Below, one piece after another: positions 2,178 through 32,392 of a DNA stretch of 33,041 nt. The notes under the pieces are model-generated. The model saw only the letters and a program-made list of their open reading frames with translations. It searched no databases and had not been told where the DNA came from. The stretch comes from a virus. Lineage: Duplodnaviria > Caudoviricetes. The stretch covers positions 1 through 33,041 of the IMG/VR virus record IMGVR_UViG_3300014613_000064; one strand, written 5' to 3'. The position numbers and the translations under genes were made by a program. Each line of letters opens with the position of its first letter. Positions within the stretch are counted from its first letter, which is position 1.

Positions 2178-2253
2178 CCTTAGAAGTTAATTATTAGGAG
2201 TTAGGTCGGAATATCTAAGGTATCCGACCAAGGTGATCAAGCCCTGTCCTCCC
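2178..2253 (-). ncRNA. HNH-leader structured RNA motif, copy 1
   Basis: P1 GGGAG/CUCCU; P2 loop contains UGAUCA; P3 GGUCGGA/UCCGACC; loop CCUUAGA complementary to UCUAAGG at the RBS. Confidence 0.8.
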
Positions 2254-2259
2254 TGGTTC

Positions 2260-2267
2260 TATTTATG
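2260..2267 (-). promoter_or_regulatory. T4-like late promoter variant CATAAATA
   Basis: One mismatch to TATAAATA; with T4 spacing, +1 falls on A2254, immediately before RNA copy 1. Confidence 0.45.
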
Positions 2268-2270
2268 TTG

Positions 2271-2471
2271 TTATTTACCCACTGGTGGTCCTTCCGTAAT
2301 TTTAGTCATTTCCCACGTTTGGGTATTTAACCTCCAATCACCTTCCAGTTCAAGAGCATCTTTATAACCTTCTATTAATGTGTTCATTTGTTTCTGAAGT
2401 TCATTAATCAACTGTATAGTATTTGATAATTTAATTGACATTGTTTTGTTTAATTTAACAGTTTTTTCCAT
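2271..2471 (-). CDS. hypothetical protein (short, coiled-coil-like)
   Basis: 66-aa ORF with AAGGAG RBS, co-directional with the module. Confidence 0.65.
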   Translation of the reverse strand: MEKTVKLNKTMSIKLSNTIQLINELQKQMNTLIEGYKDALELEGDWRLNTQTWEMTKITEGPPVGK

Positions 2472-2490
2472 TTCTTTACACTCCTTTTAT

Positions 2491-2685
2491 TTATGTTGTG
2501 AGGCGGCCATTTATTGATGTAACATTTGTGGCTATAGGATCTTGGTGTGGTATAGTTACTCGGACCAAATCTGAATTACTGTCCACATAAGCAATTTCAA
2601 TGTACCCTGTTAATTCACTTGGCCTTATTTCCACAATATTTACAATTCCGGCGTCCTCATATGTACATGCTATATTTATACTCAT
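2491..2685 (-). CDS. small protein paralogous to the N-terminal domain of the fibre-like gene 1-1377
   Basis: IACTY..IVNIVEIRPSELTGYIEIAYVDSNSDL..IATN aligns with VECTY..INVVAISPNNITGKIDLVYVDSNNDL..IATN; AAGGAG RBS. Confidence 0.75.
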   Translation of the reverse strand: MSINIACTYEDAGIVNIVEIRPSELTGYIEIAYVDSNSDLVRVTIPHQDPIATNVTSINGRLTT

Positions 2686-2696
2686 ATCATTCTCCT

Positions 2697-3113
2697 TTAT
2701 TTATAATAATCCATCATTAATGCTTCATCTGGATTACTTATAATTTTATTTCTAAAATTTAACCAATGTTGTAATTCGTGTCCTAAAGCATATTGGTTTA
2801 TAATAATTTTCCCACTTTTTGTTTTATGAACTACTAACCAAATTTGTGTTGGATTAGATAATCCAGCATATCCTATTTTTGTTAAATTTTCATTATTCCT
2901 TTCATTATATTTTTCTATTAATACCTCTTCACATCCACAAAGATGTATCTCAGGAATACCTTTGATAAAAGAATAGTAATCACTTGGTATCCAGAAATTT
3001 TGAAACCAACGATTTACTGCTGTAGTCATTTCTTTAGTAGGTATAAATGGTTTCGGTGAACAACCAACCATAAAAAAACAAAATATCATTATACAGGTTA
3101 TTATATTTTTCAT
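2697..3113 (-). CDS. putative lipoprotein with HExxH zincin-like motif
   Basis: Start moved to ATG 3111-3113 (GGGAG upstream): MKNIITCIMIFCFFMVG-C lipoprotein-type signal; ALGHELQH motif. Confidence 0.6.
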   Translation of the reverse strand: MKNIITCIMIFCFFMVGCSPKPFIPTKEMTTAVNRWFQNFWIPSDYYSFIKGIPEIHLCGCEEVLIEKYNERNNENLTKIGYAGLSNPTQIWLVVHKTKSGKIIINQYALGHELQHWLNFRNKIISNPDEALMMDYYK

Positions 3114-3183
3114 TTTATAAATTCTCCCATTCTTCTTCAATAACCATATGTATTTTTTCACATTTGTTTCTTTTAATATTTCT

Positions 3184-3846
3184 TTATAAAGGAATATTTC
3201 TATTTGCTCTGTATTTGGCTAATGAGTATTTATAATTATTTTCTTTACACCAATTTCTAAGTGATTTTATGGTTATTTCATTACCACTATAAATGAATGT
3301 CCAAATTCTAGCTTTTGGATTATTCGCTTTACATTTTTTACTTATTTTACTTCTAGTTTCCTCTGAATGTTTCCTACCATACATTGGGTTGTTTTTACCA
3401 ATATATTTATCCTTCTTTGCCGCACTCATTTTTCTTTTTGACTCTTTGGTATGGGTTTTATTTTTGAAACTACTTATTTTACCCTTACTAGATTTACTCA
3501 TTTTTCTTTTTGACTCTTTGGTATGGGTTTTTCCTTTCCTTGCTTTACTGAATGCTTTCCTTGCGCTTTCATATTGTAATGATGTTAAATTCCTTCGGCC
3601 TGATCCATTTGAAACCATATAACTAAAAGCATGTAACATCTTTCTATTGATAATTTTATCCTTAAACATTTTGGTAAGTAACCAGTGTGCGATAAAATGT
3701 TCTCTAAAAGTAAAATTTACTATTCCTTTATCTTTACCACCTAAACATTTTGGAGTAATATGATGTTTTTCATAATACTCACCTTTTATTAATATTCCAT
3801 TTTTTCTAGATATAACTAAATCCTTATAAATCTGTATGTAATTCAT
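3184..3846 (-). CDS. HNH homing endonuclease with NUMOD3 repeats
   Basis: YYEKHHITPKCLGG...FTFREHFIAHWLL; KTHTKESKRKMS and NPMYGRKHSEETR motifs. Confidence 0.88.
   Translation of the reverse strand: MNYIQIYKDLVISRKNGILIKGEYYEKHHITPKCLGGKDKGIVNFTFREHFIAHWLLTKMFKDKIINRKMLHAFSYMVSNGSGRRNLTSLQYESARKAFSKARKGKTHTKESKRKMSKSSKGKISSFKNKTHTKESKRKMSAAKKDKYIGKNNPMYGRKHSEETRSKISKKCKANNPKARIWTFIYSGNEITIKSLRNWCKENNYKYSLAKYRANRNIPL
3424..3531. repeat. 36-nt exact direct repeat (3424-3459, 3496-3531) encoding a duplicated NUMOD3 unit
   Basis: actcatttttctttttgactctttggtatgggtttt occurs twice, 72 nt apart; encodes KTHTKESKRKMS. Confidence 0.85.
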
Positions 3847-3854
3847 AACTTCCT

Positions 3855-3927
3855 CCTATTCAGTTTGTTATAGGAGTTAGGTGAAATAGAATAGGTATTT
3901 CACCAAGGTAGCTAACCCTGTCCTCCT
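3855..3927 (-). ncRNA. HNH-leader structured RNA motif, copy 2
   Basis: P1 AGGAG/CUCCU; P2 loop region UAGCUA; P3 GGUGAAAUA/UAUUUCACC; loop CCUAUUC complementary to GAAUAGG at the RBS. Confidence 0.82.
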
Positions 3928-3932
3928 TATAT

Positions 3933-3940
3933 TATTTATG
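3933..3940 (-). promoter_or_regulatory. T4-like late promoter variant CATAAATA overlapping the gp3 stop codon
   Basis: With T4 spacing, +1 falls on A3927, the first base of RNA copy 2. Confidence 0.45.
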
Positions 3941-4442: not shown

Positions 4443-4457
4443 AATATTTTATTTCCT

Positions 4458-5348: not shown

Positions 5349-5975
5349 TTACCTTCTAATTCCTTGCCAATTCATATCTAATTCTTTATCTAATTCTCTT
5401 AAAAATAAGGTTGATATCATGTAAGCACTTTTAGTATTTATCATTATTTCATTGTCATGTGATACTGCTCTCCGTATATTTTTATTGGTATATTCGGCAT
5501 CATTTAATAATTTTTCAATTACAGGTAACAAAATATTTTTATTAATATCTTGGCCTCTAAAAAATTCTTTATCGGCATTCAAATATTCCGTTAAATCTTT
5601 TACTTCGGGGCTCCATACATATTTATATTTACCTACTGGAAATACTAAATAATAAGATGAAATATAAAAAGTTATATCTCCAAAAGGTCTACCCCAACAG
5701 AATATTACATTACTCCTTGCTCTCCATCCAAATTTTTTATTAAACCATTCATCGGCATAGGTATGAATTTCTTTTTGAGTATCTAATGGGTTTCTTTCTT
5801 TCCGTATATTTTTGAAAAGTATAGGTTTTCTTCTAGCATCTCCTTGCATTCTAACAAGTGTTCCAATGGAACCTCTCATATCCTTAAGGAAAGGTTTACA
5901 ATTCTTTTTAATACCTTCAATGGCCGAAGCAAGTGTTAAATTACTTTCCGTTATATATTCTTTTAATCTACTCAT
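5349..5975 (-). CDS. hypothetical phage protein (possible head-internal protein; weak ADP-ribosyltransferase-like pattern)
   Basis: 208-aa ORF starting MSRLKEYITE; LVRM / RSNVIFC / NEIMI spacing loosely recalls R-S-E ARTs. Confidence 0.6.
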   Translation of the reverse strand: MSRLKEYITESNLTLASAIEGIKKNCKPFLKDMRGSIGTLVRMQGDARRKPILFKNIRKERNPLDTQKEIHTYADEWFNKKFGWRARSNVIFCWGRPFGDITFYISSYYLVFPVGKYKYVWSPEVKDLTEYLNADKEFFRGQDINKNILLPVIEKLLNDAEYTNKNIRRAVSHDNEIMINTKSAYMISTLFLRELDKELDMNWQGIRR

Positions 5976-6262
5976 TTATATTTCCTTACATTTCATATCA
6001 TTATATCCACAACCTTCCTTTTGGTGGATTTCTTTATGATTGGGCAATTTTGTTTACATCCATCTGAATAATAAAAACGATTTTCACCAGGATAATTATT
6101 ATTACCAAGAAGTGATTGTATTCTATTCCTTACATTATATTGTTTCGGTACAAACCATTTACCACAATAAATACACTTGACTTTTAGGATGTTAGGGTCT
6201 TCTTTATTCCTTCTAACTTGCCCACACCGGCTTATTTGTGAGGTATATAAATCATAAGTTAA
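5976..6262 (-). pseudogene. 3' remnant of a Cys-rich HNH endonuclease with the catalytic core deleted
   Basis: Reads TYDLYTSQISRCGQVRRNKEDPNILKVKCIYCGKWF...SDGCKQNCPI, then jumps near 6038 (frame change) to HKEIHQKEGCGYNDMKCKEI*. Confidence 0.85.
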
Positions 6263-6840: not shown

Positions 6841-7173
6841 TCATATTTTTTTTCTTACATCTGATCTTTTTGCTGGATTAAGATCGCCCACTAATGTTCC
6901 TTTTTTTAGGATAGACATTTTCTTTTTTTGTTCATCAGACCATTTATTACCATAATTGGGGTTATTTTTACCTTTGTTATCAGGTGGCATCGCTCTGTTT
7001 TTACATTTCACGGTACAATAATGGCCATTAATACCTTTTCTTACTAAGTATAAAAATGGTTCATTACAATACAAACATTTATTTTTATACTTAAAGGTAT
7101 CTCCATTTCTATACCATTTTCTTGTTTTATTACTATATCTTAATCTTTCCAGATTGTCCCAACATATTTTCAT
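6841..7173 (-). pseudogene. 5' half of an MKICWDNLE-family HNH endonuclease, truncated by the M15 insertion
   Basis: MKICWDNLERLRY start, CxxC pairs and NUMOD3-like NNPNYG; no HNH domain; the remainder lies at 5976-6262. Confidence 0.8.
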
Positions 7174-7183
7174 AATATTACCT

Positions 7184-7259
7184 CCTCGTTAAGTTTTACT
7201 ATATGGGAGTAAGATGGATAAACGAGGTATCCATCAAGGTGGCCAAACCCTGTCCTCCC
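7184..7259 (-). ncRNA. HNH-leader structured RNA motif, copy 3
   Basis: P1 GGGAG/CUCCC; P2 loop region UGGCCA; P3 GAUGGAUA/UAUCCAUC; loop CCUCGUU complementary to AACGAGG at the RBS. Confidence 0.82.
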
Positions 7260-7266
7260 TTTTATA

Positions 7267-7902
7267 TTATATATTTATCCCATATATTGTTGTATCCACA
7301 TCTGATAAGGTATGGATTTCATCACTTTCGGTTTCTATCCAGGAATTATCTCCATAAGCCGTAATCGGTGATGTAAGGGTACTATCACTTGTTATAGATA
7401 ATGGTTTTTTAGCCGATTCACTTTGTTCACTAAATCTGAATGGTTTTAATATAAGTTCCCATATAAATTTACCTAATTGAAATATCCTTGCCTCTTCTCC
7501 TACATCCACCACTTCATATGCCCTACTATTCCAGGTGGTTCTTAAAACATCTCCTGGTTTCGGTTCTGTCGCTCCACTTACATCTCTGGTAAATGTGTAT
7601 TTTGGAACCATTGCAAATTGTATTATGTCTTCGGATACTATTCCAAAAGAATTTGTAATACCGGCCTCTTCTGTTGGTTCATATATTAATTTAGTTATAC
7701 TTTTCCATTTATATTCGGTATTACTTGATTCTCCGTAAAGTGTGTCCATGGTTATGGTATCCGTATCTCTAACATAATAATCACATTTTATACCACCAAT
7801 ATCGGTATATTCAACTATACCAGATATGAATAAGTCATGTTCCATTGAGGTACTGTTATCATATAATTCCCATTTTGGTTTGGCCAATTGACTCGCTCTC
7901 AT
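7267..7902 (-). CDS. gp14: neck / head completion protein, T4 gp14-like
   Basis: GGIKCDYYVR..DTLYGE, SFGIVSEDIIQF, PKPGDVL, YEVVDV..FQLGK motifs; lies between gp13 and gp15. Confidence 0.85.
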   Translation of the reverse strand: MRASQLAKPKWELYDNSTSMEHDLFISGIVEYTDIGGIKCDYYVRDTDTITMDTLYGESSNTEYKWKSITKLIYEPTEEAGITNSFGIVSEDIIQFAMVPKYTFTRDVSGATEPKPGDVLRTTWNSRAYEVVDVGEEARIFQLGKFIWELILKPFRFSEQSESAKKPLSITSDSTLTSPITAYGDNSWIETESDEIHTLSDVDTTIYGINI

Positions 7903-7995: not shown

Positions 7996-8865
7996 TTATA
8001 TGGATAAATTTCTATGAATCCTCCACTTTGCTGTATTGTATTTATAATTGTTTTCCTTACACCAGGTTTTAAGTGATTTTATGGTAATTTCTACATCATT
8101 ATATATAAAAGTCCATATTTTAGCGTTTCCATTATTTTCTCCTGATTTCGCTTCACTCATCTTCCTTCTCGTTTCTCCTGATAGATTTTCTCGTTTACTA
8201 CACTCACTTAATTTCTTTTTATGTTCTTCTGAGAATTTCTTACCTCTCTTTATTTCACTCATTTTCCTTATGGTTTCCTTGGTATGTTTTCTACCATAAA
8301 GCGGATGATCTTTACCTAATATACCATACATTGGGTTATTTTTACCACTAAAATCGGCATGGTTTTCACTTATTTTCCTTTTGGTTTCCTCTGAATGTTT
8401 TTTACCGGTTGAATGTAATCTTAATTTTTTTTTAGTTTTTTCTGTATGGTGTTTTCCATACATTGGATTACCTCTACCTTTTTTTATCTTACTCATTTTC
8501 TTTCTTGTTTCGTTTGAGAATTTTTTACCATAATTAGGATTACTTTTACCAGTCATTACCTTACTAAATGCCTTCCTTGCCTTTTCAAATTGCCATGACG
8601 ATAAATTTCTTCCTTGTCCATTACCATTTAGCCTCATTATACCGAAAGCAAACAGCATTTTCCTTGTAATAATTTCATCCATAAACATCTTGGTAAGCAA
8701 CCAATGTGCTATAAAATGTTCCCTGGCCGTCAAATTAACCAAACTTTTATCTTTACTGCCCACACATTTTGGAATAATATGGTGTTTTTCATAATATTCA
8801 CCTTCAATTATCATCCGGTTCTTTCTGGAAGTAACCAAGTCCTTATAAATCTTCTTATAATTCAT
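7996..8865 (-). CDS. HNH homing endonuclease with multiple NUMOD3 repeats
   Basis: YYEKHHIIPKCVG...NLTAREHFIAHWLL; several NPMYGKHHT / KHSEETKRKIS motifs. Confidence 0.88.
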   Translation of the reverse strand: MNYKKIYKDLVTSRKNRMIIEGEYYEKHHIIPKCVGSKDKSLVNLTAREHFIAHWLLTKMFMDEIITRKMLFAFGIMRLNGNGQGRNLSSWQFEKARKAFSKVMTGKSNPNYGKKFSNETRKKMSKIKKGRGNPMYGKHHTEKTKKKLRLHSTGKKHSEETKRKISENHADFSGKNNPMYGILGKDHPLYGRKHTKETIRKMSEIKRGKKFSEEHKKKLSECSKRENLSGETRRKMSEAKSGENNGNAKIWTFIYNDVEITIKSLKTWCKENNYKYNTAKWRIHRNLSI

Positions 8866-8874: not shown

Positions 8875-8949
8875 CCTTAGTAGTTAATTATTAGGAGTTA
8901 GGTCAGAATAACTAAGGTATCTGACCAAGGTAGCTAACCCTGTCCTCCT
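8875..8949 (-). ncRNA. HNH-leader structured RNA motif, copy 4
   Basis: P1 AGGAG/CUCCU; P2 loop region UAGCUA; P3 GGUCAGA/UCUGACC; loop CCUUAGU complementary to ACUAAGG at the RBS. Confidence 0.82.
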
Positions 8950-10333: not shown

Positions 10334-10522
10334 ATGAAAATTTTAAAAGAGATAAGTGGTGCAGGCGATTCGTTATATAATATTAAGGTTTCCGATGAAA
10401 TAAAAGAAATGATTGCCTATCTTCGTTCCAAAAAGGTAAAACTACCAGCAATGTTACGGGATTATATTATTGAGGTTTATAAAACGGTTAAGGATGGAAG
10501 TGATGAAGATTTGTTGGGATAA
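10334..10522 (+). CDS. small putative ribbon-helix-helix DNA-binding protein
   Basis: GAGG RBS; LYNIKVSDEIKEMIAYL...LPAMLRDYIIEV strand-helix-helix pattern. Confidence 0.5.
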   Translation: MKILKEISGAGDSLYNIKVSDEIKEMIAYLRSKKVKLPAMLRDYIIEVYKTVKDGSDEDLLG

Positions 10523-11396
10523 TTTGGAAGGATTAAGGTATATAGGACAAGGTAGGTGGCGTAAAGGTTATAATATATATGTTTATAAAGAAGCATGTAG
10601 ATTATGCGGAGAACCCTTTATAGGTCAAAGAAAAAATGAGATTTGTACAAAATTTTGTGCCAATAAAGGTAAAAATAATCCACAATATGGAAGAAAAGGT
10701 AAAAAATCAGTAAGATATGGTATGATCCATTCAGAGGAAACTAAAAAAAGGATAAGTAGATCTAGAAAGGGTAAATGTTCGGGTGAAGATCATCCAATGT
10801 GGGGTAAACATCATACCGAAGAAACTAAAAAGAAATTGAGTGACGTTCTTTCAAATATATATAGTAAAAAGGATATTCCATTATATGATGTGTTTGTGTT
10901 GCAATTGGATTGGTGTGAACCTGTTAGAAGGAATCAAGAAGATCCAAATATATTGGAAATCAAATGTACTTGGTGTGGACGATGGTATATACCTACTGTA
11001 AATGCTGCACACCATAGATCACAATATTTAAAAGGTAATTATAATAGTGAAAGCCGTTTTTATTGTTCAGATGGATGTAAACAAAATTGTCCTATATATG
11101 GTAAAAGACCTGAAACTTTGATAAGAGAAGATGCGGTAAGAGCCGGACGGCATCCTTGGTGGGAATTAAACCGTGAGATCCAACCAGAATTAAGGAAAAT
11201 GGTATTCAAACGTGATGGGTGGGAATGTATAAAGTGTGGGTCTAATAAATCCCTCCATTGTCACCATTTAGAAGGTATAAGGTGGGCTCCTTTAGAAAGT
11301 GCGGATATAGACCAATGTATAACGGTTTGTAAGGAATGTCATAAAAAAATCCATAAGAAGGATGGTTGTGGTTATCATGAAATGGTTTGTAATTAA
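10503..11396 (+). CDS. MKICWDNLE-family Cys-rich HNH endonuclease with NUMOD3 motifs
   Basis: Start placed at ATG 10503 by paralogy; C-terminal RDGWECIKC...LHCHH...CITVCKECHKKIH HNH domain. Confidence 0.88.
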   Translation: MKICWDNLEGLRYIGQGRWRKGYNIYVYKEACRLCGEPFIGQRKNEICTKFCANKGKNNPQYGRKGKKSVRYGMIHSEETKKRISRSRKGKCSGEDHPMWGKHHTEETKKKLSDVLSNIYSKKDIPLYDVFVLQLDWCEPVRRNQEDPNILEIKCTWCGRWYIPTVNAAHHRSQYLKGNYNSESRFYCSDGCKQNCPIYGKRPETLIREDAVRAGRHPWWELNREIQPELRKMVFKRDGWECIKCGSNKSLHCHHLEGIRWAPLESADIDQCITVCKECHKKIHKKDGCGYHEMVCN

Positions 11397-12736
11397 TCAT
11401 ATAATTTACTATTATTTAGCCATTCCCAATTCTCAACATCGGCCTCGATATCGGACAATACGCCCCAAATGTCTCCATCATCTTTATCTTGGATAAACTC
11501 ATAATTTTCTTCCAATATGTTCATTTCTAAAAGATAAACTGCCCAGTATAATGCGGATACGGTATCATCTGGTTTATCTTTTCCAAAGAATTTTCCTTTT
11601 TCTTCTATAAAGGATGCTAATTCTTCTATTGTATATTTATCTTTAAGTTTTATGGATCCATCTTCTATAAGTTTTTTCATCAATAAAACTGCCCTTGGTT
11701 TTGATGTTCTGGTTGCCCTTATTCCAAGATCGGCATTTTTTGATCCGGTATTTACAAGATTTTCATTTTCATAATCCCACCATAATTTTTGTATAACAGC
11801 ACCACCTTCGCCATTGTTTTCACACATTATATGGGCATTATTATAATAGTAACATAATCTATTTAGTATTTCCGCAAACATATAAACATCGGTATTATTA
11901 TCTCTATAAATTCCTACTTGTTCCAACCTAATTGGTTTCATACTAACTAATTTCAATATTTGAGCCACGGAAAAATTTTCACCTGTTCCTTTTGCGGGAT
12001 CGGCTCCAATAATATAAGTGCATCCTTCCATAGGATTTTCCCATAACATTAATTTATCATGCATATCATATATTTTTGGTTCCTTTATTTTTGTAAGAAG
12101 GATTTTTAAGATCCTTGGACTAATAACTGTGTTGGTACTACCAAGGAAAGCACAAGAAAATTCCTGTGCAAATTTTTGAGTCCCAAGGTTTTTTAATTGT
12201 TCATCTGCCCATGCTTCATCTCTACCGGGCACTCTTTCCCAAGTTATTTTTTTATGTTTAAAAGTGTTTTGTCCAACTTCAGCTTGACTATATAGTCTAT
12301 GAAAAATATTGAACATTCCATTAGGTGTACTAATGATAATTACTTTGGCTTCTATTGAGGCTGAGATTGTAGGATAATTGGCTGCCCAAAATTCTTCGGC
12401 TTGGTTCCCAGGTACAAAAGCAAACTCATCACAATTGGATGTCTCCACTCCTTTGGAATTCATGGTATCTTTATTCCACACAAGAAAACTGTTTCTATAA
12501 TTCTTTACATTAATGATATCATAGGATTTATCTTTTCCAATATTCTTTCCGCCAATCTTACCAAGGTTTATTTTTTCATCATTTATGTAAACATTATGGT
12601 CTGCTGTGCCTATTATATCTCCATCTATTGTAGAAACCTTTATAAGATCCTTTTCTCCATTGTAACTTATACCATCAAAATTTTTCCAGCCTTCTGGTGT
12701 TAATATTTCATATTTATTATTCTTTATATAAGTCAT
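11393..12736 (-). CDS. gp17: terminase large subunit, fragment 3: split-intein C-part (aa 1-101), then Walker B to nuclease domain
   Basis: YEILTPEGW, GTADH, ...ETSN|CDEFAFVP; IISTPNG, FAQEFSCAFLGS, IIGADPAKG, ENNGEG, DDTVSAL. Confidence 0.92.
   Translation of the reverse strand: MTYIKNNKYEILTPEGWKNFDGISYNGEKDLIKVSTIDGDIIGTADHNVYINDEKINLGKIGGKNIGKDKSYDIINVKNYRNSFLVWNKDTMNSKGVETSNCDEFAFVPGNQAEEFWAANYPTISASIEAKVIIISTPNGMFNIFHRLYSQAEVGQNTFKHKKITWERVPGRDEAWADEQLKNLGTQKFAQEFSCAFLGSTNTVISPRILKILLTKIKEPKIYDMHDKLMLWENPMEGCTYIIGADPAKGTGENFSVAQILKLVSMKPIRLEQVGIYRDNNTDVYMFAEILNRLCYYYNNAHIMCENNGEGGAVIQKLWWDYENENLVNTGSKNADLGIRATRTSKPRAVLLMKKLIEDGSIKLKDKYTIEELASFIEEKGKFFGKDKPDDTVSALYWAVYLLEMNILEENYEFIQDKDDGDIWGVLSDIEADVENWEWLNNSKLYD
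12434..12736 (-). mobile_element. split intein 2, C-fragment (101 aa)
   Basis: Block B TADH, block F SYDIINV, terminal SN followed by Cys+1. Confidence 0.8.
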
Positions 12737-13629: not shown

Positions 13630-13698
13630 AATTTCTCCTTGTAACTATTTTTAAAATCTCTAAAAAATTCATTTGTGGTATATTTTATATTTTCCAAA

Positions 13699-15496: not shown

Positions 15497-15529
15497 TTTT
15501 CATCCTCCAGTATTTTATTATTCATTATA

Positions 15530-15537
15530 TATTTATA
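15530..15537 (-). promoter_or_regulatory. T4-type late promoter TATAAATA
   Basis: Exact consensus upstream of the Vsr-like gene and terminase fragment 2. Confidence 0.55.
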
Positions 15538-15552
15538 CTAGAGACAGAAAAA

Positions 15553-15900: not shown

Positions 15901-15940
15901 TTCAACTTCTCCATTAATAATTATTTCATGCGGGAAACCT

Positions 15941-20023: not shown

Positions 20024-20102
20024 AATTTTTCCTTTATAATTTATATATTGTTATATTTGGAACCACTTCTGAAATTATTTTTATTTATTTTTATAGGAAT
20101 TA

Positions 20103-20753: not shown

Positions 20754-20796
20754 AAAAAAATACCTCCAGATTTTTTTCTTTCTGGAGGTATTTATG
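20754..20796 (-). promoter_or_regulatory. RBS-sequestering hairpin / terminator overlapped by late promoter variant CATAAATA
   Basis: 13-bp inverted repeat 20758-20770 / 20781-20793 containing GGAGG; U7 tract follows; CATAAATA at 20789-20796. Confidence 0.75.
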
Positions 20797-20827
20797 TTTA
20801 TCAGCTATTCTTTTGAACTTCCTATTC

Positions 20828-23800
20828 TTAACCTTCTCGGCGCAGGACTTCACCTATAAAGGTAAGTAATATATTAGCACAGTGTTTACAATAACCCTTA
20901 TCATTTATAAGGGTATTTAGTGCGCCGTTTCTTTTCTCTTGTGCTTTTGGGTTTGTTGTGGTTGTATCACCTATAGAAAGACTAACTACATTTTTAAGGT
21001 CTTTCATAAGTTTTTTTTCAATTGCATCTCTAATAGGATCATAACTTTTATAATCAAATGTTCCGCCATTTCTTAAAACGCTGGATTCATGGACAAAGAT
21101 TTCTCTCCTGAACATTTCCTTGGAATTCTCAGGAACTTGAATCCTTTCTTCAATGGACCTCATTAGTTTTTCATCAGGAGGGCCATCTTCTCCTGTTATA
21201 CTATCTATTATTCTATCTTTCCTACAAAACGCATCGGCATTTATCATATATCTAGAAAATAAAGCCTGGGCTTGATCTTCATAGGCATATAAAAATGCCA
21301 TGTTTACTTCTTTTTTAGCTATTTCTTTAAATTCTTTGGCAACAGAATCTTTATCACCTTCCAACATATTGATTGCACTCGTTATATCTTCTTCACTTAT
21401 TCCAATGTGATGATCAAAATTTTGTTTTAGTGATCTTATTGTATCAATTGGATTGATACAATTTTTATCTTCCTTTGACGCAAAGGCTACATTTAGTGCA
21501 TTGATAACAAATCTTGGAGAAATACCAAACATACCTTCTCCATTTTTTCTTCCTTCTTCTATAAGACTTTTAATATCCATTTCTTGTTTTTTGAAACTTT
21601 CGGTCATTTCACCATTATAAAGTTTCATTTTTTCTATAAGTGATGTGACTCTCGGTGACGCTGTTAATCTCGTTAAAATTGCAAATTGTGCCGCAATTTT
21701 TAGAGTATGAGGCGCTATATGGATTCCTTTAAAATCAGATTCTCTAATCATTTTTTCATAAATTTTAATTTCATCATCCACTCTTAAATTATAAGGAACC
21801 TTACATTTATACATACGGTCATGTATGGCTTCGTTATCCTTGTTTGATTTGAATTTATCAAATTCACTTTGGTTAGTATGTGAAAGAATAACTTCATCAA
21901 CATATACTTGTGGAAAACCAGGGGATTTAATAACTTGTTCCTGTGCCGCAGAAATAAGAACATATAGAAATTTTGTATCGGCTTTTAGAATTTCAACATA
22001 TTCAACTAAACCACCATTAGCTACATGCATCTCTCCATTAAATTCAAATGCCCTTGGATCCGTTTCACCCCATCTAGCACTTTTTGTCATATTTACACGG
22101 CCAATAAGTTCTGTTATGTCCTGACTATTATGATTAACAAAACCATTTGCACAAAACGAATGTGTTCCTGGAACCGTTAAATCATAAACTTGGTCGGGTT
22201 CCTGTAATTCAATATTTTCAACTTTTAAAAATATAAGATTACCATCCGCATATGATTTAAGAGTTTCTAGTGATTCATCAAAACCAATAAATTTCGATGC
22301 TACATCAACAAATTCCAAAACAGTAGATTTTCTTGGATTTCTTGACCATGAATCAGAATATGATTTATACCTCTCAAATTTTATAAGGTCTTTAATTTTA
22401 TATATAGGACCATGAACATCTTTTATTTTACCAAATATATCAGAAAATAAAGGTTGTATATTCGGCACACTATCCCAATTACTATGATAACGCTTACTAA
22501 TAAATTCTCCATCATCGGTTTTTTTATTTTTTAAAGATGGTATTAATTCAAGTACATCAAGTACATCATCACCAGTAACAATAACTGAATAACAAGTAAA
22601 TTTTTTATCTATGATTTTTTTCTTTAACGCAGAAACAATGCCAAAATTCATTAACATCATTTGAACTTGTTTTGCTAATGTTATTGAGGCAGAATCGTAT
22701 TTAAATCTATTACTCTTTAATGTGTGTCTGGAAGATATTGTACCATCGCCCCAAAATAATCCTTCTAAGAAACTTAATATATTTTCCTTGGTTGAGGTTC
22801 TTATAATTTTTGGAATGTCCTTATTATAAGCACCTTTTTTAATACCACACACATTTAGTAACCATGATGAAAGTTTTGATGACCAATTACATACTGATAT
22901 ATAATCATTACCTCTATTATAATTATATGTATCAATGGAAAAGGTTTCTTTGAAACATTGATTAAAATCATTTATAATATCCATATTTTTATTACCGAAG
23001 TAATAAGCCTTTTCACCAATTGAACCTTCAGATACCATATAACCTAAGAGTTTTGATAATTTTGGTGTTAAAATACTTGGGAATGTAATATTCTTATTTT
23101 TACCTCTACTTTCAGGACCATTATATACAAATTCAGGTAGGTCAATTTTATTACCAAACAACTTTTGTCTTCTTTGTAAAACAACAACATCTTCAATTTC
23201 AATATCTTTTGTTTCTTTCCATTCTAATTTACCATCAATCATTGTAAGTAATGGATGGACGGGAGTTGCGGATATATCATATCCAAGTTTTGTTTTAATA
23301 TTGATGATTTCTTGTATTCCATTATTATAGAAATGTGATGTTAATTCATTACCATTGGTACCAGATATACCAATTTCCAGCGGAACAAATTCATCATTGT
23401 CGGATTGTGCTGTTTCTTGTAATTCTTCAAATGTAAGCATTCCTTCGTTTGAAAATAAATATGTATCCCATTTAACACATTTCGGGTCGCTCGGTTGAAA
23501 GGTCCCTATACCTTTCCGTTTTTGCTCTGAGAATATAAAGGATTCTACAGGAACATTTTCCCAAGCTATAATACCTTCCTTATTAGTGTATTCAACATCA
23601 ATCATTCTCTGGCATACAGGACAAAGTGTTCCTTCAATTCTTACCTTCAATTTATCTTCCCAAAAAGATCTATCAATATCAGGAATAAGATGTAATGGTT
23701 CTTCATGTAAAGGACAGCCAGTAATTGTAAATTTAGGTGTATTATCCATCTCCAACCCTTTTTTGATAAGAGACGCAATTGAACTTTTGCCTGAGGCCAC

Positions 23801-24136
23801 AGGACCAACCATAATAAAAATTCTTTTACCGGTTTCAGTTCGTCTGGCCGATGCTTTAAGAAATCTCATAAGGTCATGTATGGCTTCGAGTGTGCCATAA
23901 ATCTTTTCATTAAAAAAGTTATAACTTACGAGGTCATCATACCCCTTCGTTTTTAATGAAGTATTAACAGGTTTAGTACCATGTTTCATAATCATATTAT
24001 ATATACGACCAGGTGCAAATGTTGCAATTTCGGGATTTTCTTTAACCTTATAAAGATAATCAATCATTGTTCCTGACCATAAATTTAATTCTTTGCCTTC
24101 TTTTTGTTTTGTTATTACATCAAAAAAATTTTCCAT
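20828..24136 (-). CDS. prkA: PrkA / YeaG AAA+ serine kinase-family protein with an intein (about 651 aa after splicing)
   Basis: Walker A GPVASGKS, CPLHEEPLHLIP, GTFQPSDPK|SQDITELIG, DPRAFEFNGE..ANGG, AHTN-equivalent SHTNQSEF, GISPRF. Confidence 0.93.
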   Translation of the reverse strand: MENFFDVITKQKEGKELNLWSGTMIDYLYKVKENPEIATFAPGRIYNMIMKHGTKPVNTSLKTKGYDDLVSYNFFNEKIYGTLEAIHDLMRFLKASARRTETGKRIFIMVGPVASGKSSIASLIKKGLEMDNTPKFTITGCPLHEEPLHLIPDIDRSFWEDKLKVRIEGTLCPVCQRMIDVEYTNKEGIIAWENVPVESFIFSEQKRKGIGTFQPSDPKCVKWDTYLFSNEGMLTFEELQETAQSDNDEFVPLEIGISGTNGNELTSHFYNNGIQEIINIKTKLGYDISATPVHPLLTMIDGKLEWKETKDIEIEDVVVLQRRQKLFGNKIDLPEFVYNGPESRGKNKNITFPSILTPKLSKLLGYMVSEGSIGEKAYYFGNKNMDIINDFNQCFKETFSIDTYNYNRGNDYISVCNWSSKLSSWLLNVCGIKKGAYNKDIPKIIRTSTKENILSFLEGLFWGDGTISSRHTLKSNRFKYDSASITLAKQVQMMLMNFGIVSALKKKIIDKKFTCYSVIVTGDDVLDVLELIPSLKNKKTDDGEFISKRYHSNWDSVPNIQPLFSDIFGKIKDVHGPIYKIKDLIKFERYKSYSDSWSRNPRKSTVLEFVDVASKFIGFDESLETLKSYADGNLIFLKVENIELQEPDQVYDLTVPGTHSFCANGFVNHNSQDITELIGRVNMTKSARWGETDPRAFEFNGEMHVANGGLVEYVEILKADTKFLYVLISAAQEQVIKSPGFPQVYVDEVILSHTNQSEFDKFKSNKDNEAIHDRMYKCKVPYNLRVDDEIKIYEKMIRESDFKGIHIAPHTLKIAAQFAILTRLTASPRVTSLIEKMKLYNGEMTESFKKQEMDIKSLIEEGRKNGEGMFGISPRFVINALNVAFASKEDKNCINPIDTIRSLKQNFDHHIGISEEDITSAINMLEGDKDSVAKEFKEIAKKEVNMAFLYAYEDQAQALFSRYMINADAFCRKDRIIDSITGEDGPPDEKLMRSIEERIQVPENSKEMFRREIFVHESSVLRNGGTFDYKSYDPIRDAIEKKLMKDLKNVVSLSIGDTTTTNPKAQEKRNGALNTLINDKGYCKHCANILLTFIGEVLRREG
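22127..23479 (-). mobile_element. 451-aa intein with LAGLIDADG endonuclease inside prkA
   Basis: Cys1 CVKWDT, block B ATPVHP, LLGYMVSEGS and FLEGLFWGDGT motifs, VYDLTVPGTHSFCANGFVNHN|Ser. Confidence 0.93.
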
Positions 24137-24638: not shown

Positions 24639-24662
24639 TATTTATATGTAAACTTATTTATA
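24639..24662 (-). promoter_or_regulatory. two TATAAATA late-promoter consensus boxes (24639-24646, 24655-24662) upstream of gp16
   Basis: Exact matches; very AT-rich context lowers specificity. Confidence 0.5.
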
Positions 24663-25622
24663 GGAATGGAACCATATATTTGTGTGATTGGATTTTTTTT
24701 CTTCTTCTTTTATATTTTGTAAATTTAAAATGAATACCTTAACTCCGGCATTTGGGACAGCAAGAACTTTACCCAATTTCATTTGTTCCATAACCCACTT
24801 ATGGTTCATAGGTTCTCTATTTTTAATTTTATTTTTTTCTATCCAATAATTAATAAACCCACCTTCTGAATAACATTTAAATTCAAACCCTAATTTATCC
24901 ATACTACCACCTAAGTTATGATCATAATCGGAATAGAATTTCAAATAATCCACCTTAACAATATTTTTACCTATTTTAATTCTTCTATGGTTCTTTATAA
25001 AATGTTTAAGTAATTTAGATGAACCACCCATAACATAGGAAAATTTTATAGTGCCAACTCTAATAACTTCTACGATATTATCTTCCTTACCAAAAAAATT
25101 TTTACCAAATGTATATAACATTAATAATGCACCGCCATGTAAACCATTTTTATTTTTTTTCAAACGTAAACCCAAATTTAAACTTGCACCTCTTTTTCCA
25201 TAAAAACAATTCACTTCTTCAAATGATCTGGCCTCTTGATTATTAACTTCTACCACTACACAATCTCTAGCATAAAACTTATTGGGTGTTTTGTGTGCCG
25301 CATGTAATATATAAGACTTTAGAACATCCTTTTTTTTAGGATCATTCCATTCAAAATCTTTAATCCATAGTTTGAATGAATTATTTTGTTCCGCCTCATA
25401 ACTTAAATCAAAAAAATGTTTTTTATTTACACCTTCAATATTGTATTTAGGATATGAAATTGGATATTTTTCTGACGGAACATATTCTATTTCATATTTA
25501 CGTTTTCCACCTGGGTTATTATACCATAGACAAAAATTTGATAATTCGGTGCTATAATCTATATCATTTTCATCCAAGAAATTTCTAATTTCTTCTAAAT
25601 TTTTTTCATGTTTTATATTCAT
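24654..25622 (-). CDS. Hef-like protein (degenerate nuclease plus GNAT/Mom-like C-terminal domain)
   Basis: KFYARDC..EARSFEEVNC.YG, LYTFG, EVIRVGT..VMGGSSKLLKHF, FYSDY..GGSM.KLGF; lacks the EYxGxxWH motif of its neighbour. Confidence 0.65.
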   Translation of the reverse strand: MNIKHEKNLEEIRNFLDENDIDYSTELSNFCLWYNNPGGKRKYEIEYVPSEKYPISYPKYNIEGVNKKHFFDLSYEAEQNNSFKLWIKDFEWNDPKKKDVLKSYILHAAHKTPNKFYARDCVVVEVNNQEARSFEEVNCFYGKRGASLNLGLRLKKNKNGLHGGALLMLYTFGKNFFGKEDNIVEVIRVGTIKFSYVMGGSSKLLKHFIKNHRRIKIGKNIVKVDYLKFYSDYDHNLGGSMDKLGFEFKCYSEGGFINYWIEKNKIKNREPMNHKWVMEQMKLGKVLAVPNAGVKVFILNLQNIKEEEKKSNHTNIWFHSYK

Positions 25623-25695
25623 ATTAGGTATGGTACTATATTTTCAGGTATTTGTAAATTATTTATTTTATATTTACAAATTATATGTTTTATGA

Positions 25696-25703
25696 TATAA
25701 ATA
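25696..25703 (+). promoter_or_regulatory. T4-type late promoter TATAAATA
   Basis: Exact consensus 6 nt before the ORF-track ATG at 25710. Confidence 0.5.
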
Positions 25704-25709
25704 GGCTTA

Positions 25710-27221
25710 ATGAGTAGATATACAGGAGTATTTGATATGATTATAAGGCGTGAAGATTTTGGTAATATAAAAGAATTAAGTAATGGATCACATAAGAAAA
25801 TTTGGTTTATTTGTGAAAAGTGTGGCATAGGTATATTACAAGCATACAGGAATTATAATCAACAAAAATCCGGTAAATTCTGTAGACCCTGTAGAAATAA
25901 ACATACTGCCAATAGACCTGATGTGAAGGAAAAACAATCACAGGCATCTAAAAAGAAATGGAAGGATCCTGAACACAGGAAACATATGAGTGAAGTGTTA
26001 CAAAAAGCCTGTAAAAAAGCATGGGACCAAGATGATGGAACAAGAAGAAAAACTATCCATAATAAAATATCTTATAATGAAATAAAAGAGATTATAGAAA
26101 AGGAAGGTTTTAAATTATTAACTACTATATCAGAAAGAGGGAATGTAGGACATAACATAGAAATAGAGTGTAAAAGAGGCCATAAATTTAAAACTTCTAT
26201 GGGTAGATGGAACAGTGGTATAAGATGTAATAAGTGTCAAAAGGTTATGTTTAGTAAAATACAAAATTCTTTTAGTGAAGAAGGATATACTCTTCTTATA
26301 AATGAAGAAGATTATATTAATAATGCCATAAAAATGCCCTATATATGTCCTTTAGGACATAAACACCATATAACATGGTCAAATTGGATATTAGGACATA
26401 GATGTGGAAAATGTTCATCTCATATATCAAAAGGAGAATATGAAATACAAAACTATATCCAAAGTTTGGCCAGTGACATGATAACAAATGATAGAATAAT
26501 TATCAAACCATTAGAGTTAGATATAGTTATTCCTTCAAAAAAATTAGCAATAGAATATTGTGGTTTATTTTGGCATTCAGAACAAAAAGGTAAGGACAAA
26601 AATTATCACTTAAATAAATTTAATATGTGTAAGGAAAAAGGTTACAGACTTATAACTATATTTGAGGATGAATGGTATAAGAAAAAAAATGTTGTGAAAA
26701 ATAAATTAAAACATATATTAAACAAAGGTTCCGATGGAAAAATATATGCAAGGAAATGTAAAATATATCCCGTACAAACAACAGAGGCAAAGATATTCAT
26801 TGATAAATTTCATATCCAAGGATATATTACGTCTTCAATAAGATTAGGAGCCTACCATGAAAATAAATTGGTGGCTGTAATGACTTTTACTAAACAAGAA
26901 CAATCTGATATATGGGAATTAAATAAGTTTTCAACTTCTTGTAATATAACTGGTATAGCAGAAAAATTATTGGAATACTTTAAAAGGAATTATGAATGGA
27001 ATGAGATTTACTCTTTTGTTGATAAAAGATGGAGTAATGGAAATCTATATAGAAAAATGAGTTTTGAAGAATTAGAAGATACAGAACCAAACTGTTGGTA
27101 TTTTTACCAGAAGTCTTTTTATAAGGAATATAAACGTATTTTAGATATATTTAATCCTATGGATGATTGGTATAAGATATGGGATTGTGGTAATTATAAA
27201 TTTGTTATGAGACGTGACTAA
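25710..27221 (+). CDS. Hef-like homing endonuclease (Zn ribbons, Vsr-like nuclease, GNAT-like C-terminus)
   Basis: GSHKKIWFICEKCG, CxxGH..CxxC repeats, SKGEYEI..LELDI.IP..LAIEYCGLFWHS, IFEDEW, IYARKC, IWDCG. Confidence 0.82.
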   Translation: MSRYTGVFDMIIRREDFGNIKELSNGSHKKIWFICEKCGIGILQAYRNYNQQKSGKFCRPCRNKHTANRPDVKEKQSQASKKKWKDPEHRKHMSEVLQKACKKAWDQDDGTRRKTIHNKISYNEIKEIIEKEGFKLLTTISERGNVGHNIEIECKRGHKFKTSMGRWNSGIRCNKCQKVMFSKIQNSFSEEGYTLLINEEDYINNAIKMPYICPLGHKHHITWSNWILGHRCGKCSSHISKGEYEIQNYIQSLASDMITNDRIIIKPLELDIVIPSKKLAIEYCGLFWHSEQKGKDKNYHLNKFNMCKEKGYRLITIFEDEWYKKKNVVKNKLKHILNKGSDGKIYARKCKIYPVQTTEAKIFIDKFHIQGYITSSIRLGAYHENKLVAVMTFTKQEQSDIWELNKFSTSCNITGIAEKLLEYFKRNYEWNEIYSFVDKRWSNGNLYRKMSFEELEDTEPNCWYFYQKSFYKEYKRILDIFNPMDDWYKIWDCGNYKFVMRRD

Positions 27222-29982: not shown

Positions 29983-31062
29983 TTATATCTCCTTACATTT
30001 CATATCATTATATTTACATCCATCCTTTTGATGGATTTCCTTATGACAGTCTGAACAAACCGTTATACAACCATTAACATCAGCACTTTCCAAAGGATTC
30101 CATCTAATACCTTCTATATGGTGACAGTGTAATGATTCAGTAGATTTACATTTAATACATTTCCATCCATCCCTTTCAAACACCATTTGCCTTAATTGTG
30201 GTTGGACCTCACGGTTTAATTCAAGCCATGATAGTCTTCCTGCTCTTATTGCATCTTCTTTCATTAACGTTACAGGTTTTTTGCCATAAATAGGACAATT
30301 CTGTTTACATCCATCCGAACAATAGAAACGGTTTTCTCCTTTATAATTACCTTTAATAGATTGTATTCTATGTTTTACCATGATAAGTATAGGTACAAAC
30401 CATTTTCCGCACCAGGTACATTTAATTTCCAAAACATTAGGATCTTTTTGGTTTCTCCTAACAGGTTCACACCATTCTATTTGTTGTGCATAGGTATTAT
30501 ATAATGGTATACATTTTCCTGTATACCTATTACTTTTTGCCTTACTCATTTTTCTTTTAGTTTCTTCGGAATGATTTATAGTTCCATTTTTTCTTTTACT
30601 ATCTATAACTTTTTCAACAACATCTTTGTTTTTCATACAATTATTTACGGATAATTTTTTTCTATACTCTTTAGTATTAAAAATAGATAAAGGATCTTGC
30701 CTTAATTTTTTCATACTTTTTGATATATTCAATTTATGTAAATCTGTGAGGTTTTTCTCCTTTGCTGATTTACTCATCTTTTTTCGTGTTTCGTTTGTGA
30801 CTATTCTTTTTCTAAAACTTTCAATTGTTTTTTGAGAATGTTTTTTACCATAAAATGGATTATTTTTACCTTTTTTTGAACATTTATTATCACAAAACCT
30901 GCCCTTATTGTTTATAAACATTAAAAATGGCTCTTTACAAGTTTCACATTCTTCCACATAATGATATGCGTTTGATGTTTTTCCCTTTTTTGTTATTTTA
31001 TACCACTTACCTGTCCTTTTACTATACCTAAGTCCTTCCAAATTATCCCAACAAATTTTCAT
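29983..31062 (-). CDS. MKICWDNLE-family Cys-rich HNH endonuclease with NUMOD3 repeats
   Basis: Family N-terminus; NNPFYGKKHS; RDGWKCIKC..LHCHH..CITVCSDCHKEIH. Confidence 0.88.
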   Translation of the reverse strand: MKICWDNLEGLRYSKRTGKWYKITKKGKTSNAYHYVEECETCKEPFLMFINNKGRFCDNKCSKKGKNNPFYGKKHSQKTIESFRKRIVTNETRKKMSKSAKEKNLTDLHKLNISKSMKKLRQDPLSIFNTKEYRKKLSVNNCMKNKDVVEKVIDSKRKNGTINHSEETKRKMSKAKSNRYTGKCIPLYNTYAQQIEWCEPVRRNQKDPNVLEIKCTWCGKWFVPILIMVKHRIQSIKGNYKGENRFYCSDGCKQNCPIYGKKPVTLMKEDAIRAGRLSWLELNREVQPQLRQMVFERDGWKCIKCKSTESLHCHHIEGIRWNPLESADVNGCITVCSDCHKEIHQKDGCKYNDMKCKEI

Positions 31063-31072
31063 AATATTACCT

Positions 31073-31150
31073 CCTCGATTGGTTTTTTGTTATAGGAGTA
31101 AGGTTAATTGATCGAGGCAATTAACCAAGGGAGCTACCCTCTGTCCTCCT
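31073..31150 (-). ncRNA. HNH-leader structured RNA motif, copy 5
   Basis: P1 AGGAG/CUCCU; P2 GAGGG-UAGCU-CCCUU; P3 GGUUAAUUG/CAAUUAACC; loop CCUCGAU complementary to AUCGAGG at the RBS. Confidence 0.82.
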
Positions 31151-31156
31151 TATGTT

Positions 31157-31327
31157 TTACTCCTCGTTTTTTACTGGATTTATATCATTCTGTAATTCCA
31201 GTTTATCTTTAAGCCAACCATCTCTATGCTTAGATATTTCACCTTTTAAAATATCTTTAGCATCCGTAAAGGAATCCTCTTCAAAGGAATCTAAAGCGGC
31301 TTTTATTTTTTCTTTATCTACTGGCAT
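31157..31327 (-). CDS. small protein, probable prohead core component (gp67/gp68 position)
   Basis: 56 aa, below the ORF-track cutoff: MPVDKEKIKAALDSFEEDSFTDAKDILKGEI...; AAGGAG RBS; between portal and protease. Confidence 0.65.
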   Translation of the reverse strand: MPVDKEKIKAALDSFEEDSFTDAKDILKGEISKHRDGWLKDKLELQNDINPVKNEE

Positions 31328-31346
31328 TATTTATTCTCCTTGTATA

Positions 31347-31354
31347 TATTTATA
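31347..31354 (-). promoter_or_regulatory. T4-type late promoter TATAAATA
   Basis: Exact consensus just upstream of the RBS of 31157-31327. Confidence 0.6.
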
Positions 31355-31372
31355 TTTTTTATATTAAATTCC

Positions 31373-31510
31373 TTATAATCCTGTTTTGTTTACATACCCG
31401 TTTACCTTATTGACCGCGTTTTCAAGTAGTTTTTTGTTATTTCTCCATACAAAAAACCAAACTACTGATGATACCGTTATACCCGCTACAAATGCTATAA
31501 TAATTCCCAT
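31373..31510 (-). CDS. small single-pass membrane protein
   Basis: 45 aa MGIIIAFVAGITVSSVVWFFVWRNNKK...; strong AAGGAGG RBS. Confidence 0.7.
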   Translation of the reverse strand: MGIIIAFVAGITVSSVVWFFVWRNNKKLLENAVNKVNGYVNKTGL

Positions 31511-31526
31511 GTTATTCCTCCTTTAT

Positions 31527-32306
31527 TTAAATACATTTCATATCATTATATCCACAACTTTCCTTCTGATGGATTTTTTTATGGCAATCCTTACAAACCG
31601 TTATACAACCATCCATATCGGCTGATTCTAATGGATTCCATCTAATACCTTCTAAATGATGACAGTGTAATGAATTATCAGATCCGCACTTTATACACTT
31701 ATAGTTATCACGTTCAAGTACCATTTGCCTTAATTCCGGCTGGACCTCTCTGGAGGTTCCATTTATTTCCTGATATTTATATCTTGTTTGTGTCCAATAT
31801 ATAGGACAATTTTCTTTACATCCTTCAGAACAATATAATCTACATTCACCATTCAACTGCCCTAATAAAGATTGTATTCTTCTCCTAACTTCAGATTTTT
31901 TCGGTAAAAACCATTTACCACAATAGGCACATTTAACTTCTAATAATGGATATTTATCATTAGTTTTTCTGGTTTTCTCATATAATTCTAATTGAGGTCC
32001 AAAGGTTATATACAGAGGTAAATTTTTCTTTTCAACGCCACCTTTCCAGTTAGGATTATTTGTTTTGGATTGTTTAATAGACATCTTTTTCCGTGTTTCT
32101 TTTGTATGTTTTTTACCATACATTGGATGCCTCTTACCACTTAGGGAACATGATCTACCGCAATATTTACTATATACCGATGAAAAATATGGTTCATCAC
32201 ATAACAAACAATTTTCATAATATAAGTAAGTACAGTTTCTTTTATACCATTTACCCGTTTTTCTACTGTATCTAAGTCTTTCCAAGTTATCCCAACAAAT
32301 CTTTAT
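31527..32306 (-). CDS. MKICWDNLE-family Cys-rich HNH endonuclease with ATA at the homologous start position
   Basis: ATA AAG ATT TGT TGG GAT AAC TTG at 32306, 7 nt after GGAGG; intact HNH C-terminus. Confidence 0.82.
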   Translation of the reverse strand: MKICWDNLERLRYSRKTGKWYKRNCTYLYYENCLLCDEPYFSSVYSKYCGRSCSLSGKRHPMYGKKHTKETRKKMSIKQSKTNNPNWKGGVEKKNLPLYITFGPQLELYEKTRKTNDKYPLLEVKCAYCGKWFLPKKSEVRRRIQSLLGQLNGECRLYCSEGCKENCPIYWTQTRYKYQEINGTSREVQPELRQMVLERDNYKCIKCGSDNSLHCHHLEGIRWNPLESADMDGCITVCKDCHKKIHQKESCGYNDMKCI

Positions 32307-32316
32307 AACTTTACCT

Positions 32317-32392
32317 CCTCAATTGGTTTTTGTTATAGGAGTGAGGTTAATTAATCGAGGCAATTAACCAAGGTAGCTAACCCTGTCCTCCT
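32317..32392 (-). ncRNA. HNH-leader structured RNA motif, copy 6
   Basis: P1 AGGAG/CUCCU; P2 loop region UAGCUA; P3 GGUUAAUUG/UAAUUAACC; loop CCUCGAU pairs with AUUGAGG (one G-U). Confidence 0.82.

Follow-up and report, generated by a model that had tools for sequence, protein, structure and literature searches.

Introduction

RNA hairpins over the ribosome binding site (RBS) are described for several endonuclease genes of the T-even phages, among them I-TevI, I-TevII, I-TevIII, segB, and Aeh1 mobE (PMC2988022, PMC3014915). The T4 endonucleases are reported to be translated late, and a late promoter of I-TevI truncates the hairpin, so that late transcripts escape it (PMC2988022). This report concerns an RNA leader of about 75 nt that precedes six nuclease genes in IMG/VR virus record IMGVR_UViG_3300014613_000064, the 33,041 nucleotides of which are called the window here. 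The leader has a closing stem (P1) around two hairpins (P2 and P3), forming a three-way junction, and the P3 loop is complementary to a site that overlaps the Shine-Dalgarno (SD) sequence. The best overall explanation is a portable translational lock on nuclease genes that is tuned by pairing of the leader with itself, a reading to which an even chance is given from the sequence comparisons below.

As with the T-even hairpins, RNA structure is predicted to lie over the RBS of endonuclease genes, both free-standing and intron-borne. The T-even hairpins, however, are simple and gene-specific, while the leader is one conserved tertiary fold used by many nuclease families, and its pseudoknot includes no more than the 5' part of the SD. 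Late transcripts of I-TevI lose the hairpin, whereas the predicted start of the leader transcript keeps the whole fold, with a promoter-like word upstream of P1. The leader is a functional parallel to the T-even RBS hairpins, yet it is not one of them.

A hairpin loop also pairs with the 5' part of the SD in the preQ1-I and SAM-II riboswitches, which have an A-rich linker. The leader resembles them in its geometry of SD capture, but its loop is free to vary, no ligand-related genes accompany it, and it has no Rfam match. The Rfam search suggested in the preliminary description of this DNA gave no match on any copy, with the window at E<=5 and with copy 5 alone at E<=10. Scans of 34 family loci gave the same result, so that no Rfam family of any kind, neither a known aptamer class nor a ribozyme model, matches the motif in these sequences. 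No description of the leader was found among the papers listed in literature searches. A table in PMC10690425, a catalogue of viral RNAs, has candidates upstream of HNH and GIY-YIG genes, and the leader may sit as an unnamed candidate in the alignments of that catalogue or in the supplement of PMC5737381.

Pairing of the P3 loop with the Shine-Dalgarno sequence

The window has exactly six copies of the leader, and related copies are found in many other sequences. All six lie on the minus strand and score 76 to 94 bits with a covariance model built from 29 copies, the six included, and run with filters off; the best match elsewhere in the window is 17.9 bits. Their positions and loop/target pairs are as first described, with one wobble pair in the target of copy 6. 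A start codon had been placed after each copy, and this is ATG in five cases, but copy 6 reads ATA. Relatives were collected by pattern scans of viral contigs, metagenomes, and GTDB genomes, by a protein-led scan, and by covariance-model searches. After three weak matches were dropped this gave 231 rows, and removal of six rows that were truncated or without GAC left 131 distinct instances. Parsing succeeded for 129, and setting aside two antisense-type folds left at least 127 copies. Family counts from the metagenome pattern scan are lower bounds, with about 210 estimated. Searches of 10 whole virus records added 11 copies, with up to 8 copies per genome. The GTDB scan gave 43 loci and one true copy (L289), which is on a 1,454-base contig of a metagenome-assembled genome and is unusable for host assignment.

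The P3 loop follows the SD of the gene behind it. It is fully paired with a downstream site in 115 of the 127 copies, compared to 8.2+-2.6 (maximum 18) in 1000 permutations, and there are 84 distinct loop sequences. The target is predicted to overlap the SD by 2-4 nt in 103/122 copies and by at least 1 nt in 116/122, and it ends 8-12 nt before the ATG in 105/122. These results support the earlier proposal of a portable, covarying loop-to-SD pseudoknot before unrelated nuclease families, for which a translational brake is the simplest reading. By burying part of the SD, the loop probably lowers loading of the 30S subunit and acts as a translational lock in cis.

A different role at the 5' end of the message was also considered, in which the fold affects stability, provides an RNase site, cleaves itself, or positions the SD for better initiation. 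In roughly half of the copies the predicted transcript start coincides with the beginning of the fold, several SD bases remain free, and in introns (L419, L434) the fold persists after most of the nuclease open reading frame (ORF) has been lost. None of these roles would need a loop that tracks the SD of each gene over 84 sequences, however, and no ribozyme model matches, so that such a role is considered improbable. Two further candidates were rejected. The P1 3' strand could act as an anti-SD in 79/125 copies by strict counting, but it is not a conserved mechanism because the pairing is lost where P1 covaries. Coupling to an upstream stop codon is suggested by distances of 5-8 nt in five window copies, but across the family the distance is scattered, and it is not general.

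Stems and junction

The stems are maintained by compensatory change, while conservation of the junction is partly a product of the searches. In 75 distinct metagenome rows, aligned by fitting to the covariance model, 96.9% of stem cells are paired, 14 of 19 pairs have two-sided changes, and the covariation score is reached in none of 500 shuffles. Some features that the preliminary description took as fixed are variable. P1, given as RGGAG/CUCCY, covaries across the family, and the supposedly invariant GAC is GAA in L425 and L428; a pattern scan for GAA junctions found 2 loci, neither of which was scored by the covariance model. The loop of exactly 7 nt holds for the six window copies, but in the family it is 7 nt in 89/127 and 6 nt in the others, according to a parser that mis-centered bulged stems such as those of copies 1 and 4.

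The junction strands are GA(C/A)A, U(U), and UNA. The G-C pairs that flank the junction and its G, A, A, U, and A positions are strongly conserved, but this conservation is overstated because the search patterns fixed the junction. The pseudoknot could be stabilized by a metabolite, ion, or phage protein bound at such a junction, as had been suggested, and the partial SD capture is like that of preQ1-I. Nothing points to a small molecule, however. The genes downstream are unrelated selfish nucleases with no common metabolism, metabolite, or domain, the C of GAC varies, and the probably related motif int-alpA has another junction with the same P2. A small-molecule ligand is therefore not supported, and a switch controlled by a ligand or protein is decidedly improbable. 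The N of UNA also varies (UAA in 74, UUA in 49, and UCA in 6 of the 129 parsed copies). This variation fits a self-contained block like the UAA/GAN motif, which is described as a building block with GAN opposite UAA beside a helix (PMC2615604). Compared by sequence, the GAN and UNA strands of the leader may resemble that motif, but they lie in a junction and those of UAA/GAN in an internal loop. P3 closes with U-A/R-Y in 93/127 copies and the linker ends in a conserved AA-Y-Y-U, which suggests that both reflect tertiary contacts.

Downstream genes, sites of insertion, and promoters

The leader precedes several families of nuclease genes. A Pfam scan covered 66 of the 105 downstream ORFs and left out most genes of the MKICWDNLE type. 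Nuclease families were matched in 29/66 (HNH 11, GIY-YIG 12, MTES_1575 5, and His-Me 1), in 13/66 the only domains are accessory ones typical of this kind of gene, and 4/66 have other matches. The leader is also found before PD-(D/E)XK-type nuclease genes.

The leader and the nuclease gene appear to arrive together. The gap between the portal and protease genes is 222-369 bases in 31/55 relatives compared to about 2,400 in the window, and 80 capsid-centered loci gave no significant covariance-model match; joint arrival is drawn from these two results. Contigs from four groundwater DNA runs contained no clean empty allele. In L429 a copy that has lost its nuclease gene also lacks the P1 3' strand and the target. 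Four family copies are located inside group I introns, and two of them have only an ORF remnant behind. The introns at L419:1277-1630 and 521-908, L432, and L240 bear the leader in a peripheral loop, and two tandem introns have an intact lock before ORF remnants of 7 and 18 aa. In T4, repression of the endonuclease is reported to protect intron splicing (PMC3014915, PMC2988022).

The words TAAATA or TATAAT occur just before P1 in 57/125 copies, including copies 1-3 of the window, compared to 11.4+-3.2 in shuffles, and they are predicted to be promoters. The word just upstream of the fold had been overlooked in the preliminary description.

Self-complementarity of the P2 loop

The tip of P2 is self-complementary, and this feature, also missed earlier, is the best clue to what triggers the leader. 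The cores are AGCU, GAUC, GGCC, AAUU, GUAC, and UGCA, and imperfect forms keep a central GC or AU. Palindromy is kept while the letters change, with GC, AU, UA, and CG all seen as central dinucleotides. The core is self-complementary at a fixed offset in 36/45 P2 variants and 114/127 copies, while P3 loops give 0-35%. By eye, the remaining 9/45 variants fit after a shift of 1-2 nt, and 11/11 later copies outside that count have a 4-mer palindrome, among which CAUG is new. Since adjacent bases of one strand cannot pair with each other, the core is most simply read as a site of pairing between molecules.

Similar hairpin tips are found in known kissing loops. Among the P2 variants there are three GACG tetraloops, and one variant has GUGCAC; these sequences are the two-base-pair kissing loop from MoMuLV (Moloney murine leukemia virus) and the kissing loop of the HIV-1 dimerization initiation site (DIS), respectively, as given in PMC7357161. 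The MoMuLV and HIV-1 DIS dimers and that of the guanidine-II riboswitch are solved structures from retroviral genomes or a ligand-binding riboswitch, while a leader dimer is inferred here for a phage mRNA. Functional dimerization of mRNA leaders is rare among natural RNAs according to that 2020 review (PMC7357161), and the 75-nt leader is a candidate for it.

The palindromes and inverted repeats could instead act as DNA, as a cruciform or protein site, or stem from template-switch mutation. As DNA, some P2 variants form perfect palindromes of 12 bp, and two related folds are antisense to their genes. However, the coding strand has 46 G-U against 8 A-C mismatches among 1075 P3 positions, which bears out the strand asymmetry first seen in the window and favors the minus strand there. 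In addition, the change of palindrome sequence argues against a sequence-specific protein, and the target is tied to the SD and the start codon. A role as DNA is highly unlikely.

Relationship to int-alpA

A probable relative of the leader is int-alpA (Rfam RF02996, typed 'Gene; sRNA'), a motif that is reportedly the work of Weinberg et al. 2017. It is not named in the main text of PMC5737381. The RF02996 model detects true int-alpA members, but it has 0 window matches at E<=10 and 0/10 matches among motif-bearing virus records at E<=0.1 (cut-off 35.8 bits). A pattern derived from one true member gave a set of 93 distinct int-alpA-like RNAs; RF02996 matched 17 of the first 20 of these loci, 13 of them at or over the cut-off. 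Conversely, the leader model gave one weak match, at 17.7 bits, on 62 loci, 60 of which came from the int-alpA-like pattern scan. By eye, the int-alpA-like loci L441-L560 head varied phage genes (HNH-like, antirepressor-like, and replication-like).

The earlier statement that the leader belongs to no known family thus holds by model score but not by architecture. Like the leader, int-alpA has a three-way junction with two hairpins, a self-complementary P2 core (consensus gAcgu), and a CCUU-rich P3 loop with an AGGG-type partner downstream. The two sets have twelve P2 hairpins in common, letter for letter, accounting for 15/45 variants, 58/127 leader copies, and 34/93 int-alpA-like RNAs. The junctions differ, with UA/GAAAA/CU in int-alpA and GA(C/A)A/U/UNA in the leader, and P3 is about 5-6 bp in int-alpA and 7-10 bp in the leader. 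It is likely that the leader family is a sister of int-alpA with a rebuilt junction, rather than a member by score.

The two groups also differ in the number of sites that the loop can pair with. A second loop-complementary 5-mer site is present in 48/93 int-alpA-like RNAs but in only 10/127 leaders, where second sites are mostly in coding sequence (from a list of 4-mers, by eye). With 4-mers, 78/93 int-alpA-like RNAs have two sites compared to 17.6 when permuted. The near site is at a median of 14 nt and the far site at a median of 28 nt. In many of them one loop has a decoy site and an SD site. The single site of the leader starts about 17-18 nt out, and its P3 is 3-4 bp longer, so this site would correspond roughly to the near site. 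With that correspondence, a compact fold would expose the SD of two-site int-alpA RNAs and bury that of the leader.

Proposed mechanism

The mechanism is proposed as a series of steps. The sequences show the leader and nuclease gene as a joint insertion between structural genes or in group I introns, and covariation shows P1, P2, P3, and the loop/target helix. The loop would then fold back over the A-rich linker and bury 2-4 nt at the 5' end of the SD, some 10 nt ahead of the AUG. Because the predicted promoter is upstream of the whole fold, all transcripts would carry the lock and release by a late promoter, as in T4, would not apply; output would be set by the stability of the pseudoknot. 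Overall it is likely that the leader keeps nucleases scarce. P2-P2 pairing between leaders rather likely occurs, and it would stabilize the folded, locked state. Whether such pairing tightens or releases the lock is a closer call, and tightening is only slightly favored. Tightening at a high transcript level would provide feedback on a nuclease in a strongly expressed late region.

The opposite output would be an ON switch, in which self-pairing at a high transcript level pulls the loop off the SD, as a late, abundance-gated replacement for the promoter inside the hairpin of T4. Some release would be needed if the lock is present on every transcript that starts at the predicted promoter. The near and far sites in int-alpA-like RNAs imply a trigger that moves the loop off the near site, and by rough geometry the only site of the leader is at about the near distance. 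T4 endonucleases are also translated late (PMC2988022). However, a strand-swapped P2 dimer need not disturb P3, and positive feedback on a nuclease would be riskier. An ON switch is rather unlikely.

A more general idea covers both groups of RNAs. Leaders may dimerize by their P2 palindromes when the message that carries them becomes abundant, and so flip ribosome access; this is tentative and more doubtful than the lock itself. In the leader the SD would have moved into the near pairing site, which is a decoy in many int-alpA-like RNAs, and because of this the same trigger is predicted to give opposite outputs in the two groups. If this is true, the int-alpA superfamily would be a widespread, protein-free concentration sensor in phages, with OFF or ON set by the position of the SD relative to the near site of the loop. 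Different palindromes would be separate channels; copies 2, 4, 5, and 6 of the window (AGCU) could cross-talk, while copies 1 (GAUC) and 3 (GGCC) could not.

Several observations weigh against a tight lock on nucleases that is tuned by self-pairing. Between 2 and 4 SD nt are left free in 106/122 copies, and the loop/target helix averages -6.8 kcal/mol, weaker than the full SD:anti-SD duplex at -10.2; the block to the ribosome may therefore be partial. Linker length and P3 length are uncorrelated (rho about 0). The homodimer gain exceeds loop-permuted controls in only 31/45 P2 variants (-8.6 compared to -6.8 kcal/mol), as calculated by a program that cannot model kissing. Perfect locks stand before 27/34 short or broken ORFs and 87/93 long or open-ended ones (p=0.04), although as a test for decay of the lock before broken genes this is weak. 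No Pfam match was found for 20/66 scanned downstream proteins, and at L195:2560-2823 (-) the gene behind a perfect lock is an 88-aa DUF5405 gene rather than one for a nuclease. Seven further nuclease genes of the window have no leader, and so the leader is not required. In T4, removal of the I-TevI hairpin is reported to have cost no viability through nuclease toxicity (PMC2988022). Finally, the set is biased by search patterns that fix the junction, and its counts are of copies rather than independent events.

The leader has potential uses and wider implications. It indicates that unrelated selfish nucleases can use a common regulatory cassette, which is portable and is adjusted to each ribosome binding site. 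For the orphan Rfam motif int-alpA, the leader provides a specific mechanism that can be tested, and the one-site lock and the decoy-plus-SD switch form a natural pair for contrast. A scaffold that tolerates 84 loop sequences may serve as a ready programmable translation lock.

The window and its leader copies

The window covers 33 kb of an uncultured T4-like phage, as a fragment with a CheckV completeness of 13%. It encodes a portal protein, head protease, scaffold, major head protein, terminase, neck, and tail-tube proteins. Among cultured phages (INPHARED) the top capsid match is 35% identical, and no match covers the leader. The sequencing runs containing the window are DNA runs labelled groundwater metagenome, with no RNA run among those listed, and one of them may be the run from which the window came. 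Nuclease-type genes crowd the window. Three of the six that have a leader are broken, since the gene behind copy 6 starts with ATA, that behind copy 1 has a frameshift, and that behind copy 3 is truncated.

Copies 1, 2, and 4, like all features described in this and the next paragraph, are on the minus strand, and they precede homing endonuclease genes (phrog_655, NUMOD3). Copy 1 (2178..2253) has P1 at 2249-2253/2196-2200, P2 at 2230-2245 with core GAUC, P3 at 2204-2229 with loop CCUUAGA, and its target at 2178-2184. A TAAATA late-promoter-like word at 2260..2265, 6 nt before P1, is a predicted promoter on the basis of enrichment across the family. The gene (1396..2168) consists of 196 aa and a C-terminal piece in another frame. 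Copy 2 (3855..3927) has P2 at 3905-3919 with core AGCU, its loop at 3889-3895, and its target at 3855-3861. Another TAAATA word and predicted promoter (3933..3938) lies 5 nt before its P1 and overlaps the tail-tube stop codon, and the gene (3184..3846) is an open frame of 220 aa. Copy 4 (8875..8949) has P2 at 8927-8941 with core AGCU, loop CCUUAGU, and its target at 8875-8881; it has no promoter word and an upstream stop 6 nt away. Its gene (7996..8865) is an open frame of 289 aa.

The other three copies precede MKICWDNLE-type genes. Copy 3 (7184..7259) has P2 at 7236-7251 with core GGCC, its loop at 7221-7227, its target at 7184-7190, and a TATAAT word 6 nt upstream (7266-7271). The gene (6841..7173) ends at 110 aa, short of any nuclease domain and without the C-terminal HNH domain. 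Copy 5 (31073..31150) has P1 at 31146-31150/31094-31098, GAC at 31143-31145, P2 at 31127-31142 with core AGCU, P3 at 31102-31126 with its loop at 31111-31117, UUA at 31099-31101, and its target at 31073-31079. Its gene (29983..31062) is an open frame of 359 aa with a C-terminal HNH domain, inserted before the head maturation protease gene. Copy 6 (32317..32392) has P2 at 32370-32384 with core AGCU, its loop at 32354-32360, its target with the wobble pair at 32317-32323, and the portal stop 7 nt away. The gene (31527..32309), an HNH gene inserted behind the portal gene, is open after its first codon, ATA.

Further features were seen elsewhere in the window. A decayed leftover of another MKICWDNLE-type nuclease gene is located at 5975-6250 (-). 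The terminase large subunit at 11393-15951 (-) is split over three ORFs that have intein-like pieces and are separated by two free-standing nuclease-type genes, and this locus resembles a fractured split-intein gene. Phage-borne genes for PrkA (with a LAGLIDADG intein), DUF444, and SpoVR are found at 15997-24136 (-) in the order of the host operon, with HNH genes interspersed. At 10334-11396 (+), a 62-aa ORF with no Pfam match overlaps the start of a leaderless HNH gene oriented against the late genes; as a guess, it may encode a small DNA-binding repressor. Two divergent phrog_559-type nuclease genes at 24654-27221 have a common inverted repeat of about 50 bases in their 5' regions.

Outside the window, L346:2496-2560 (+) and L285:90-182 (-) have a fold with a GAC/UUA junction that is antisense to a gene read by eye as GIY-YIG-like. 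GUAAUCC, the P2 loop of this fold, complements the SD region of that gene, and inward-facing late-promoter-like words are present at both ends. A pattern for this type of fold found only the contig of L346 and one chance match. The fold may be a trans-acting antisense version of the leader scaffold. L346 also has a tRNA with a CUA (amber-reading) anticodon at 3180-3255 (-), in a phage tRNA cluster.

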